This document shows, in pieces, positions 680 through 3,374 of a DNA stretch of 4,057 bases. The position numbers and the translations under genes are program-made. How positions within the stretch are numbered: position 1 is the first letter of the stretch; each line of letters begins with the position of its first letter. The notes under the pieces are model-generated. The model was given only the letters and a program-made list of their open reading frames with translations, was not told the DNA's origin and did no database searches. Origin of the DNA: a virus (taxonomy: Duplodnaviria > Heunggongvirae > Uroviricota > Caudoviricetes); the IMG/VR virus record IMGVR_UViG_2695420701_000014. One strand, given 5' to 3'.

Positions 680-1828
680 TTACCCCCTGAAGCCTGGCGG
701 GATCGCACTGTCCGGCAACGAGACGGTGTTAACCTGTCGGAGCAACGTCTCAGGCCGAACACCTTTCGGCGCGAACAGGCCCTGGTATTCATTGGCGATG
801 CTGTGTCGAATCACCTGCTCAGGTGTAAAACCCTGCTGACGGAATTTTTCCAGTTCCCGTATCGCCCCGTTAGCGCCCTGCTCCGTTCGAATCGGTTTTC
901 GCAATGCCTGCCTGAACTGGACCCACTCATGCCAGAGTGTTTCTGGCAACCAGTCGGGCAGATCAACTGACAACGGGTCAAATTTTTTCTGGCGAACAGC
1001 CCCACCGATAACCAGAATTCCCTGCTCGGTGTGCCTTGCGATATCACTGCGCCGCAAGACACATATCCCGGTTTCAACAGCACCGATTTTGAGCAGTGAT
1101 TTCTGTCGCGGAGAATTTCGGTCAAGCTCGCTCCCACACCGGACACCGTTCCTGTCAGTCACGACGATATCAATCCGCCCTCCGCAACCGTCACCACGCT
1201 CTGGCACCGGATACTCACGACAGACATCCAGGCCAGCAGCCTGCAACGCAACCACCGCAGAATTACAAAATTCCGCTGCAGTACCGCCAGATAATCTCCC
1301 CTCAAGCACTCCAGCCACAAAATCCCGAAACTCCCTTCCGGAAGGGAAGGGTTTGGGATGGGTTAGATCTGTTTTTAGATCTTTATCTGTATCTTTATTA
1401 GTTGCCTTTGTGTTGGCATCATGTTCGAACATCACTCCAACATCTGTTTGAACACCTGTTAAATTTCTCTCTTGTTTTGTTTGAACATCTGCTTCCTTTC
1501 TGCTTCTTCTGGCCTGAACAGATGCTTTTCCTGCGGCTGATTTTTTGGTTAATTTTTCTCTGACAGATGCCAGATCTTCCTCAATCCGAAGATGCATCCA
1601 TTCGTCGCCGTTATCACAAAAAAACTCCCGCAAGGATGGTTCAACATCAACCCATCGCTCGTTAGTCAGACGGGCAATTTTTGCCAACCTGTTTTTGGGT
1701 ATTGGCTTTCCTGTTTGCCAGTAATTGAACATCAGCAACAAATACGCGCCGTGCTCCTCTGCTGACAAATGCATGGTGTCAGCCAGGTAATCAGCTATGT
1801 ACAGTTGCATGTATGGTAATGCGGCCAT
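680..1828 (-). CDS. Replication initiator, O-like, with DUF1376-type N-terminal domain (YdaU-like); iteron-encoding K/D/T-rich linker; C-terminal domain presumed to recruit the helicase loader
   Basis: ORF-track frame 680..1879 (399 aa). I place the start at ATG 1828-1826 (MAALPYMQLYIADYLADTMHLSAEEHGAYLLLMFNYWQTGKPIP...) because it is preceded by a GGGG SD at 5-nt spacing, whereas ATG 1879 has no SD and adds a hydrophobic 17-aa extension. The N-terminal Y-x-x-D-Y-L-x-D-T...E-x-H-G-A-Y pattern matches DUF1376 replication proteins as recalled. Stop TAA at 682-680 lies 6 nt upstream of the DnaC-like ATG, implying translational coupling. Gene order Cro-like, CII-like, O-like, P-like matches lambdoid replication modules. 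Confidence 0.8.
   Translation of the reverse strand: MAALPYMQLYIADYLADTMHLSAEEHGAYLLLMFNYWQTGKPIPKNRLAKIARLTNERWVDVEPSLREFFCDNGDEWMHLRIEEDLASVREKLTKKSAAGKASVQARRSRKEADVQTKQERNLTGVQTDVGVMFEHDANTKATNKDTDKDLKTDLTHPKPFPSGREFRDFVAGVLEGRLSGGTAAEFCNSAVVALQAAGLDVCREYPVPERGDGCGGRIDIVVTDRNGVRCGSELDRNSPRQKSLLKIGAVETGICVLRRSDIARHTEQGILVIGGAVRQKKFDPLSVDLPDWLPETLWHEWVQFRQALRKPIRTEQGANGAIRELEKFRQQGFTPEQVIRHSIANEYQGLFAPKGVRPETLLRQVNTVSLPDSAIPPGFRG
1363..1577. other. Putative phage origin of replication embedded in the O-like gene: iteron-like repeats plus AT-rich tract with AGATCT/GATC sites
   Basis: GAACA-centred repeats at 1427, 1450, 1483 and 1516 (spacing 23, 33, 33 bp): ATGTTCGAACAT (12-bp perfect palindrome, 1421-1432), CTGTTTGAACACCTG (1444-1458), TTGTTTGAACATCTG (1479-1493, 13/15 identical to the previous), CCTGAACAGATGC (1513-1525), and a degenerate copy CTGACAGATGC near 1560-1570. 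An adjacent AT-rich tract at 1363-1400 (TTAGATCTGTTTTTAGATCTTTATCTGTATCTTTATTAG) carries two AGATCT hexamers, with a third at 1572-1577. The arrangement parallels the lambda ori inside gene O (established knowledge). Confidence 0.5.
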
Positions 1829-2314: not shown

Positions 2315-2553
2315 GAATCAACCGCTCCTATGCTGTTTTCGCTATGCTTACCGTCTGGGGGGAATACATCGTCAAGTCCACAATGAGCGCCAAGCCGATT
2401 AAGGGTAGAAACAATTTTTCTGCACTCCTCTAGTCCAGGGGTACGAAAATTTGCTTCGTAATTTGCCAGTCGGCTTTGTATCCACCCTAACTGAACAGCA
2501 AGTTGTCTTTGAGACAGCCCAAGCTGTTTTCGATATGTTGAAATTTTGTTCAT
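2311..2553 (-). CDS. Cro-like HTH (XRE family) transcriptional regulator, 80 aa (YdaS-like position)
   Basis: ATG at 2553-2551 preceded by GGAGG with 6-nt spacing. The product MNKISTYRKQLGLSQRQLAVQLGWIQSRLANYEANFRTP... has a clear HTH (LGLSQRQLA...GWIQSRLANYE). It is divergent from the repressor gene across a 96-bp operator-bearing spacer. Confidence 0.8.
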   Translation of the reverse strand: MNKISTYRKQLGLSQRQLAVQLGWIQSRLANYEANFRTPGLEECRKIVSTLNRLGAHCGLDDVFPPDGKHSENSIGAVDS

Positions 2554-2577
2554 TGAAAACCTCCGATGACAATTTTA

Positions 2578-2638
2578 AACACACCTTGTGTTATATAGCC
2601 AAGCCGTTTTGTGTTTTATGTAAATCACGATTCGTGAT
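2578..2638. promoter_or_regulatory. OR-like operator cluster: three 15-bp dyad sites at 23-bp centre spacing between the divergent Cro-like and repressor genes
   Basis: AACACA-cct-TGTGTT (2578-2592, perfect 6-3-6 dyad); AAGCCG-ttt-TGTGTT (2601-2615, right half-site only); ATCACGA-t-TCGTGAT (2624-2638, perfect dyad). Shared core CACr-N3-yGTG; centres at 2585, 2608 and 2631. The divergent promoters themselves could not be assigned confidently. Confidence 0.55.
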
Positions 2639-2649
2639 ACAAGGATGCA

Positions 2650-3069
2650 ATGGAAAAAGAAAACGAAAAAATTGCCGCTAGTAGGCTCAATGACAAAATT
2701 GCAATGCGTCTTAAAGAGCGCAGGCAGAAGCTTGGTTTATCTCAAGGAAAACTTGCTGAAATCTGCGGATGGACGCAATCGCGTATAGGTAACTATGAGG
2801 CGGGCAGCAGAAATGTTGGAGTACATGACGCTGTCGTATTGGGAAAGGCACTTGGCATATCTCCTCCTGAGCTCCTCTTTGGAGAACAGGAATCTTCTGA
2901 ATTGTGGTTAAATGAATCCCAACGAAAACTTCTTGAGTTGTTTAACCAGCTACCGGGCTCAGAACAACAACGAATGATTGAGCTATTTGAAGTCCGGCTA
3001 AAAGAAATCGATGAGTATGTAGAAAAATATTTGAGAGGCAGGATTAAAGATAATCCCCCACCGGAATAA
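2650..3069 (+). CDS. Prophage repressor, CI-functional/RacR-like, XRE-family HTH, 139 aa, no LexA-like S24 peptidase domain
   Basis: ATG 2650 with AAGGA SD 4 nt upstream. HTH LGLSQGKLAEICGWTQSRIGNYEAG; the recognition-helix region GWTQSRIGNYEA is nearly identical to that of the Cro-like protein (GWIQSRLANYEA). The C-terminal ~60 aa are charged and helical-looking (ELWLNESQRKLLELFNQLPGSEQQRMIELFEVRLKEIDEYVEKYL) and too short for an S24 autoprotease fold. An intrinsic terminator follows. Confidence 0.85.
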   Translation: MEKENEKIAASRLNDKIAMRLKERRQKLGLSQGKLAEICGWTQSRIGNYEAGSRNVGVHDAVVLGKALGISPPELLFGEQESSELWLNESQRKLLELFNQLPGSEQQRMIELFEVRLKEIDEYVEKYLRGRIKDNPPPE

Positions 3070-3099
3070 TGATCTTGCTATCACAGTAATATGCCAATC

Positions 3100-3123
3100 A
3101 GCCCGCTATCAGCGGGCTTTTTT
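3100..3123 (+). terminator. Rho-independent terminator of the repressor transcript
   Basis: AGCCCGCT-atc-AGCGGGCT forms a perfect 8-bp GC-rich stem with a 3-nt loop, followed directly by a T-run (3118-3123), 31 bp after the repressor stop codon. Confidence 0.75.
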
Positions 3124-3152
3124 GTAGCATCATCATATGACACTCACCATAA

Positions 3153-3194
3153 AACACGTTGCGTGTTGACACAAGAAAACAAATTGTGTTTAAT
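3153..3194 (+). promoter_or_regulatory. pL-like early promoter (sigma70 -35 TTGACA, 17-bp spacer, -10 TTTAAT) overlapped by two operator dyads
   Basis: -35 TTGACA at 3166-3171 (consensus) and -10 TTTAAT at 3189-3194 (5/6) with a 17-bp spacer. Operator AACACG-ttg-CGTGTT (3153-3167, perfect dyad) overlaps the -35; AAAACA-aat-TGTGTT (3176-3190, 11/12) overlaps the spacer and -10. Centres at 3160 and 3183, 23 bp apart, the same spacing as the OR-like cluster. Confidence 0.55.
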
Positions 3195-3374
3195 AAGCAT
3201 ATCCAAACAACGCCCCACCAGAGAACGGCAGGACAATACCTCGAGTTATCCAGTCACTGAACAGGGCTAAGTAGCCAGCCTGAGGCATACGAACATGACG
3301 GCAGTTGTTGATTGATACAAAGCGCAGTAGATAAAACGTTCCGCCACCCGGCGTTAAGGGGAAATGGGGTCAAC

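Follow-up and report, generated by a model that had tools for sequence, protein, structure and literature searches.

In phage lambda, the replication origin lies inside the initiator gene, at the linker that separates the DNA-binding domain of the encoded protein from its loader-recruiting domain, and the origin-specificity module, consisting of the N-terminal domain and the iterons, is exchanged apart from the C-terminus and the loader, a known pattern for the origin-specificity modules of lambdoid phages. The origin of the Escherichia coli prophage Rac, oriJ, was reportedly cloned functionally by Diaz and Pritchard in the late 1970s. Rac has been described as carrying an active oriJ (PMC3945230), and we found no nucleotide-level placement of this origin in the accessible literature. 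Here we analyze a 4,057-nucleotide stretch of DNA (hereafter the window) from a virus of the Caudoviricetes (IMG/VR record IMGVR_UViG_2695420701_000014), which by its sequence is the immunity and replication region of a Rac-like lambdoid E. coli prophage, and in particular an array of repeats with an adjoining AT-rich tract at 1363-1526, within the gene of an O-like initiator. An earlier note on this DNA had proposed a lambda-type origin inside that gene, at 1363-1577, and the comparative and statistical evidence strongly supports this proposal. We consider 1363-1526 to be the probable replication origin of the prophage, lambda-ori-like in its arrangement and belonging to the nonhomologous YdaU/DUF1376 initiator family.

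The ydaU gene of the Rac prophage of strain K-12 is 96.9% identical to the window over 1366-1879, a segment that includes all repeat units and the AT-rich tract, and 88% identical over 680-988; the window therefore represents an allele of the Rac replication module. K-12 Rac differs from it in having another immunity region, a helicase loader gene that is 84% identical, and no counterpart of a 377-bp insertion found in the window. Strain VL40 matches the window with 99.7% identity across 4026 bp, most complete E. coli genomes contain parts of the sequence, and of 5426 such genomes ~900 carry the Rac-type segment. An origin within its own initiator gene, as in lambda, is not an unusual arrangement, and the repeat pattern of this one is common to a large and little-studied initiator family. 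The origin reading is founded on this lambda-like layout, on constraint acting at the level of the DNA, on the family-wide pattern, and on iterons that are specific to lineages, together with the position of the least stable tract of the window, the winged-helix fold of the N-terminal domain, the joint movement of the module, and the reported activity of oriJ in Rac.

Dyad iterons and the AT-rich tract in the linker

The O-like gene occupies 680-1879 on the minus strand and encodes a 399-residue protein, recognized from its open reading frame and its DUF1376 domain as a member of the YdaU family; near-identical E. coli genomes annotate it as YdaU family or as phage replication initiator. The candidate origin sits mid-way in this gene, at gene nucleotides 354-517, between DUF1376 and the C-terminal module, which is the lambda-type location, and the linker peptide quoted in the earlier note is indeed the translation of this minus-strand reading frame.

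GAACA cores occur, as that note had stated, at 1427, 1450, 1483, and 1516, with spacings of 23, 33, and 33 bp, and TGTTYGAACAYC is present in three copies with at most one mismatch at 1422, 1445, and 1478. The iteron-like repeats are real, but GAACA is not the core of the repeating unit, for which a 10-bp dyad, AACRnnYGTT, is the better description. Both the GAACA core and the perfect 12-bp palindrome that had been singled out are junctions between neighboring AACRnnYGTT units. The palindrome, ATGTTCGAACAT, is present at 1421-1432 but is not conserved; it is specific to the window allele, and K-12 has GTGTTTGAACAT instead.

The core array consists of five units, U1-U5, at 1405-1460, phased at 12, 11, 12, and 11 bp, and its position is equivalent to that of the AACGACCGTTC arrays of distant homologues. 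U1 (1451-1460) and U2 (1439-1448) are perfect AACAnnTGTT dyads, and these two copies, side by side at 1439 and 1451, are the only exact matches to AACRnnYGTT in the window; U3 (1428-1437), U4 (1416-1425), and U5 (1405-1414) are half-units. The 23-bp gap between GAACA cores holds a degenerate middle unit, the actual spacing being 12 + 11 bp, and contains U2. Two outlying units, each with one mismatch, lie upstream of U1 in the direction of the gene: R2 (1484-1493; AACATCTGCT on the plus strand, AGCAGATGTT on the coding strand) at a distance of 33 bp, and R1 (1517-1526; AACAGATGCT on the plus strand, AGCATCTGTT on the coding strand) at 66 bp, that is, 33 bp from R2. With centers at 1521, 1488, 1455, 1443, 1432, 1420, and 1409, the seven units follow one another at 33, 33, 12, 11, 12, and 11 bp and therefore all lie on one face of the helix. 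A cluster of four AACRnnYGTT matches within 110 bp, allowing at most one mismatch, arose in 12 of 2000 Markov simulations, and the array of at least three to four direct repeats with internal dyad symmetry exceeds chance.

On the coding strand, the seven units fall in codon frames 0, 0, 2, 2, 1, 1, and 0, and one DNA word therefore gives peptides as different as DVQT, GVQT, and MFEH. If the repeats instead had no function as DNA and simply followed from a low-complexity peptide linker rich in K, D, and T, this would account for the dipeptide VQ that is common to R1-R3 in one frame and for the D/T/K-rich peptide encoded by the AT-rich tract, but not for the use of three codon frames by the units, nor for a period of 11 bp, which is impossible as a peptide period and which runs through all three codon phases across the family. 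Holding the protein fixed, we resampled the synonymous codons 1000 times and scored the largest family of 10-mers in the linker. The real linker contains a family of four, a size reached by none of the 1000 recodings, among which the maximum was three (46 of 1000). Among 45 distinct relatives, variation in the N-terminal domain (N-domain) shows the usual excess at the third codon position (0.109/0.078/0.267 for positions 1-3), whereas variation in the array is about even (0.17/0.23/0.25), and the conserved columns of the array are AAC and GTT triplets every 11 bp, between which the 4-nt spacers vary freely. Codon frames, recoding, and variation by codon position thus place the constraint on the DNA, in support of the joint coding and cis-acting constraint put forward in the earlier note. 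The earlier note had set beforehand, as the alternative that would refute it, a protein-level repeat with synonymous drift. These tests contradict that alternative, and we regard a mere peptide repeat as highly improbable.

Directly downstream of the repeats, at 1363-1403, lies an AT-rich tract (AACTAATAAAGATACAGATAAAGATCTAAAAACAGATCTAA on the coding strand) that is presumed to be the DNA-unwinding element. The presence of such a tract of ~40 bp beside the repeats, pointed out earlier, is borne out by the calculated duplex stability: no 40-mer in the window is less stable than 1363-1402, whose nearest-neighbor dG of -41.9 compares with a window mean of -54.9 (standard deviation 4.0). The GC fraction of the tract is 0.33-0.37, and its coding strand has 24 A versus 8 T, so that a melt-prone, strand-asymmetric element follows the iterons as in lambda. 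The tract derives from a (GATACA)n hexamer repeat, now decayed, and is conserved family-wide; AACTAATAAAGATACAGAT is nearly invariant among the 45 relatives, and the first 20 bases of the tract are almost unchanged. A scan for promoters and terminators found nothing within 1363-1577, the closest match being a terminator-like hairpin at 1343-1323, within the insertion, and Rfam gave no match anywhere in the window.

A perfect 16-bp palindrome, TCCCTTCCGGAAGGGA, stands after the tract at 1332-1347. At the same position K-12 (locus L003, ~2470-2495) and many relatives have runs of C and then one of G (CCCCCC..CCCCCCCGGGGG), reminiscent of the palindrome on the right-hand side of lambda ori. A GC-rich palindrome was considered as a third conserved element and rejected, since the 8 of 35 loci that have one are no significant excess over the control rate of 0.13.

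A layout shared across the YdaU family

Relatives were found at more than 448 genomic and 533 viral loci. The survey of the linker covered 80 loci from IMG/VR and 80 from named genomes, and these loci have the same iteron-linker pattern as Pseudomonas phage UFJF_PfDIW6 and Moraxella phage Mcat21. A common layout of winged helix, iterons, and hexanucleotide tract is found in ~60 nonredundant homologues from Enterobacterales to Alphaproteobacteria, with three to six iterons phased at 11 bp. In PfDIW6 (69% N-domain identity) and Mcat21 (~31-33%), AACGACCGTTCAAC-type repeats at 11-bp spacing occupy the same position in the gene, following the conserved peptide AGKASxxAR and preceding an A-rich tract; repeats of ~11 bp after this peptide, and then a hexanucleotide tract, characterize the window and the family alike. 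Among 25 IMG/VR representatives, successive motifs are 11 (17 times), 22 (12 times), or 33 (twice) bp apart, and all three codon phases occur. Consistent with this spacing, a motif-agnostic autocorrelation over 61 nonredundant loci (<80% N-domain identity) has peaks at lags of 6, 11-12, and 22 in the linker only, where the 3-nt coding periodicity is lost.

The hexanucleotide repeat is nearly always the next element after the array and varies from two to eight copies. In Gamma- and Betaproteobacteria the units are of the form AACGnnCGTT, within the family pattern AACRnnYGTT, and are accompanied by (GATACA)n, read as DTDTDT, whereas Alphaproteobacteria (Bosea, Methylorubrum, Microvirga, Inquilinus, and others) have GCAATGCT-type 11-mers with (CACAAY)n or (CAGAAC)n. 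Given this difference between the alphaproteobacterial and the gamma- and betaproteobacterial units, the repeat sequence tracks the lineage of the initiator while the architecture stays constant. The loci with GCAATGCT-type repeats (L143, L153, L156, L160, L165, L169, and L171, at relative positions 320-430) are mostly alphaproteobacterial, L169 being labeled Desulfuromonadaceae.

We found no sequence-level description of this architecture in the literature on ydaU, DUF1376, iterons, or (GATACA)n. A broader and distinctly more tentative proposal is that YdaU/DUF1376 defines a widespread class of phage origins, undescribed at the sequence level, in which dyads recurring once per helical turn abut a hexanucleotide microsatellite and the linker is both dictated by the DNA and a landing site for nucleases. 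Such a class would span Enterobacterales, Pseudomonas, Moraxella, and Beta- and Alphaproteobacteria; its microsatellite would act as the unwinding element or be recognized in single-stranded form, and the DNA would determine the linker peptide (NDRSTTVE..., DTDTDT), not the reverse.

The N-domain of the window protein, encoded at 1505-1828 on the minus strand, is presumed to be the iteron-binding module. DUF1376 is the sole Pfam family found in it (residues 22-104, E 7e-25), and it was modeled confidently as a winged helix, the fold being assigned from the structure model and a fold search, which was used in place of a sequence search against the PDB that returned nothing significant. No similarity of the initiator to lambda O was detectable by BLASTP (best E 1.6). 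On the origin reading, the element works like lambda ori, yet it stands outside the lambda O/Phage_rep_O sequence family. The C-terminal module (683-988, minus strand), the presumed recruiter of the helicase loader, was assigned from PHROG matches and from identity to the C-termini of O-like proteins: its 102 residues match the PHROG groups 'replication initiation O-like' and 'primosomal protein' and are 44-49% identical to the corresponding parts of the O-like proteins of Gifsy-2, mEpX1, and N7.

Two further observations concern the initiator itself. The C-terminal tail RQVNTVSLPDSAIPPGFRG (window 683-739, the last 19 codons) resembles the C-terminus of DnaT (E 5e-4, below the curated cut-off), and the gene downstream is DnaC-like, an echo of the host dnaT-dnaC pair. 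In many members a second GTTSAAC pair, 11 bp apart, occurs within the DNA that encodes the N-domain (window 1639-1645; locus L006, 1675-1727), and its peptide, NDRWTDVERTLNE, resembles the linker-iteron peptide NDRSTTVEIPLNE; the pair could have arisen by an ancient duplication, could serve as an auxiliary binding site, or could be coincidental. As a special element it was rejected, its conservation fitting ordinary codon constraint.

Modular exchange, insertions, and GATC sites

Comparison with relatives places mosaic junctions at 988/989, 1365/1366, 1893/1894, and 2320/2321. Identity to K-12 is 84% over 1-988 and 96% over 1366-2320, and 2321-3210, the immunity region, has no match in K-12. 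The N-domain, the iterons, and the tract move together as one module, as the specificity module does in lambda. In O111:H11 strain 8D, this N-module is joined to another C-terminus, one with a DnaT DNA-binding domain, and the gene after it encodes a lambda-P-type loader; in K-12 it stands beside a different immunity region; and in strain CS6L the whole N-module (989-1893) has been replaced, while the C-terminus, the immunity region, and the rest have been kept.

The 377-bp insertion (989-1365, GC ~0.6) replaces 35 bp of K-12 ydaU and contributes, in frame on the minus strand, a segment assigned to the PD-(D/E)xK (restriction-endonuclease-like) domains that abuts the origin without being part of the origin proper. 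The domain matches phrog_1347, and its family numbers at least 245 proteins, in which it either stands alone (100-140 residues) or forms the middle module of O-like initiators, including initiators with the unrelated N-domains Phage_rep_O and wHTH. The family motif is RGDGRxGRID...IELDRxSPRxKSxxKL, and all of the family-invariant residues are retained in the window copy. Weak matches of the family to REase_MTES_1575, Mrr, Hjc, NucS, AF1548, and Cas4 hint at a PD-(D/E)xK fold; a structure model of the domain, with a predicted local distance difference test score of 49, was too poor for use. In other YdaU-family initiators, HNH or T5orf172/MUG113 domains are found directly after DUF1376, at the position of the origin linker (L075, L116, L117, L119, L120, and L122; P0036, P0046, P0061, P0080, and P0081), and nuclease modules appear to have landed in this linker repeatedly. 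Foreign sequence interrupts the origin in some copies from Shigella and E. coli (L027 at relative position ~440, L092 and L093 at ~410), either in the AT-rich tract or just past U3/U4; the interrupting sequences resemble insertion-sequence ends, by appearance only, and would inactivate the origin.

The insertion of nuclease domains and insertion-sequence elements at the tract, the mosaic junctions at its end (1365/1366 relative to K-12, ~1374 relative to O111), and the variable copy number of the hexamer would also be expected of a module boundary or microsatellite that is conserved as DNA and promotes recombination or slipping, with no origin function. We judge this explanation improbable: it leaves unexplained why dyad units recur at helical-turn phase, why the iterons are specific to lineages, and why conservation is confined to half-sites, and in lambdoid phages junctions at the ori linker are the rule although origin function there is proven.

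A number of observations weigh against an origin at 1363-1526. Replication of Rac is defective in K-12 according to a 2026 preprint, and the primers described as 'framing oriJ' in the supplement of PMC3945230 delimit a 155-bp amplicon that lies inside ydaV, the loader gene, and outside the ydaU linker (K-12 locus L003, 1739-1893; window ~263-417). Within the array, U3-U5 match AACRnnYGTT by half only, R1 is the weakest unit because it overlaps the conserved peptide GKASVQAR, and R2, in which some close relatives (L014 and L015) have mutations, is under less constraint than the core array. The co-inheritance of iterons and N-domain is partly trivial linkage because the two are physically adjacent. 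Moreover, no repeats were found at seed 7 in the alternative N-module of CS6L, and the pattern is therefore not present in every O-like module. Lastly, the activity of the window copy is uncertain because a net insertion of 114 residues lies between the tract and the C-terminal module and because the Prokaryotic Genome Annotation Pipeline (PGAP) calls the gene two pseudogene fragments in VL40, although the reading frame is intact.

The placement of the amplicon in ydaV would fit a scheme in which the repeats are initiator sites for autoregulation, copy-number 'handcuffing', or a roadblock and oriJ lies elsewhere, for example in ydaV; in iteron plasmids, too, the iterons act in control as well as in initiation. 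However, an amplicon of 155 bp designed for copy-number measurement need not include the origin, and the amplified region of ydaV has neither repeats nor an AT-rich tract. In the linker, conversely, the iterons directly adjoin the window's least stable DNA, in the lambda order, and the coupling of iterons to a hexamer tract throughout the family is a requirement of an origin but not of an operator. A purely regulatory role is, in our estimate, quite improbable, and we retain the reading of 1363-1526 as the likely origin.

The earlier note had further drawn attention to AGATCT hexamers as possible sites of Dam methylation or SeqA-type control. The three hexamers are where it placed them, at 1365-1370, 1377-1382, and 1572-1577, and are the only ones in the window (3 versus 0.74 expected; three were reached in 7 of 200 shuffles). 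The first, at the end of the AT-rich tract, lies on the insertion junction, homology to K-12 starting at 1366, and K-12 has CAGATCC; the second is inside the tract, in the context 'AGATCTAAAA', which recurs in enterobacterial relatives; and the third lies in the codons for the peptide EEDL, in the final helix of the N-domain, and is only moderately conserved. Control by Dam methylation and SeqA would be an addition to the origin model and not an alternative to it, and some of the evidence is favorable: three GATC sites in 215 bp compare with ~0.6 expected at the density of the window, two of them are 12 bp apart within the unwinding tract, and most relatives from enterobacterial (Dam+) hosts have one to four GATC in the tract, Serratia having four within 45 bp, against zero to one in Pseudomonas relatives, a suggestive contrast. 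The GATC sites of the earlier proposal are present, but the AGATCT hexamers are not conserved, K-12 having two and O111 strain 8D two, of which one is in the tract, and one of the three in the window sits on an insertion junction. No GATC occurs in the tract of Rahnella relatives, nor is GATC enriched over the entire window (12 versus 16.3 expected). GATC is a one-base variant of GATACA, and some GATC are expected because of single-base GATACA variants and abundant GAT codons; the enterobacterial pattern is perhaps merely inherited, as the sequences are closely related. Elements of the oriC type are lacking in the region: DnaA boxes (TTATNCACA) give 3 matches in the window against 3.1 expected, none of them in the origin region, and oriC-type 13-mers (GATCTnTTnTTTT) give 2 against 1.6. 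Since neither is enriched, an origin of the oriC type was rejected. A contribution of Dam and SeqA to control is possible, with a low probability.

The remaining genes of the window are those of a lambdoid immunity and replication region. Downstream of the initiator gene, a ydaV-like gene for a DnaC/IstB-like AAA+ helicase loader occupies 2-673 on the minus strand and is cut by the window edge; it matches IstB_IS21 (E 6e-18) and also Bac_DnaA in Pfam, and relatives annotate it as ydaV or ATP-binding protein. A YdaT-family gene (1892-2314) and a Cro-like helix-turn-helix gene (2311-2553) lie on the minus strand, and a cI-like helix-turn-helix gene (2650-3069) lies on the plus strand.

Predicted mechanism and comparison with known origins

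From this anatomy, and by analogy with lambda, we infer initiator binding, melting, loader recruitment, and origin activity. The N-terminal winged-helix domain would bind the 10-bp AACRnnYGTT dyads as dimers, its sites being the five contiguous units at 1405-1460 and the in-phase outliers at 1484-1493 and 1517-1526, with units about one helical turn apart. Bound on one side of the helix, the units could nucleate an oligomer resembling the 'O-some', which may melt the A-rich, YR-step-rich tract at 1363-1403, a process that negative supercoiling would assist, as would transcription of the cro-ydaT-ydaU-ydaV operon, which crosses the site. The C-terminal module would then recruit the DnaC-like YdaV loader and host DnaB to the melted strands.

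If the origin reading is correct, the window supplies a nucleotide-level candidate for the Rac-type (oriJ-type) origin, and a large initiator family labeled 'domain of unknown function' gains a predicted cognate origin and a signature. With this signature, prophage replication modules could be annotated, incompatibility and specificity groups predicted, and oriJ-type vectors designed. The linker would also be a clean case of cis-acting DNA dictating a peptide sequence, and the pseudogene call in VL40 shows that annotation pipelines can label an intact, domain-bearing initiator gene a pseudogene. Should the wider class exist, the nuclease landings (PD-(D/E)xK here, HNH/T5orf172 in relatives) would point to homing-like selfish elements with replication origins as their targets.

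Among known systems, lambda ori has a layout like that of the locus described here. Its iterons occupy gene nucleotides 349-433, with an A-rich tract after them, compared with units at 354-475 and a tract at 477-517 in the window, and in both cases dyad iterons that start at ~350 nt give way to an A-rich, strand-asymmetric tract of ~40 bp. The components differ: lambda has a Phage_rep_O N-domain where the window has DUF1376, its loader is lambda P and not DnaC-like, and its four iterons of 18-19 bp are spaced ~20-24 bp apart, whereas the 10-bp dyads here recur every 11-12 bp and partly abut. Unlike that of lambda, the unwinding tract is derived from a hexanucleotide repeat. Iteron plasmids (pSC101, P1, F, and RK2), which also use a winged-helix Rep, usually have iterons of 17-22 bp, located outside rep and accompanied by DnaA boxes, whereas the units here are shorter, intragenic, and without DnaA boxes. 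Bacterial oriC, with its DnaA boxes, GATC-containing 13-mers, DnaA-trios, and SeqA sequestration, differs in that DnaA boxes and 13-mers are not enriched here and the density of GATC is far lower than in oriC. It is nonetheless similar in having GATC sites in the unwinding tract, of which there are a few here, and in the abutment of a short periodic element on the duplex sites of the initiator, the period being 3 nt in oriC and 6 nt in the YdaU-family linker.

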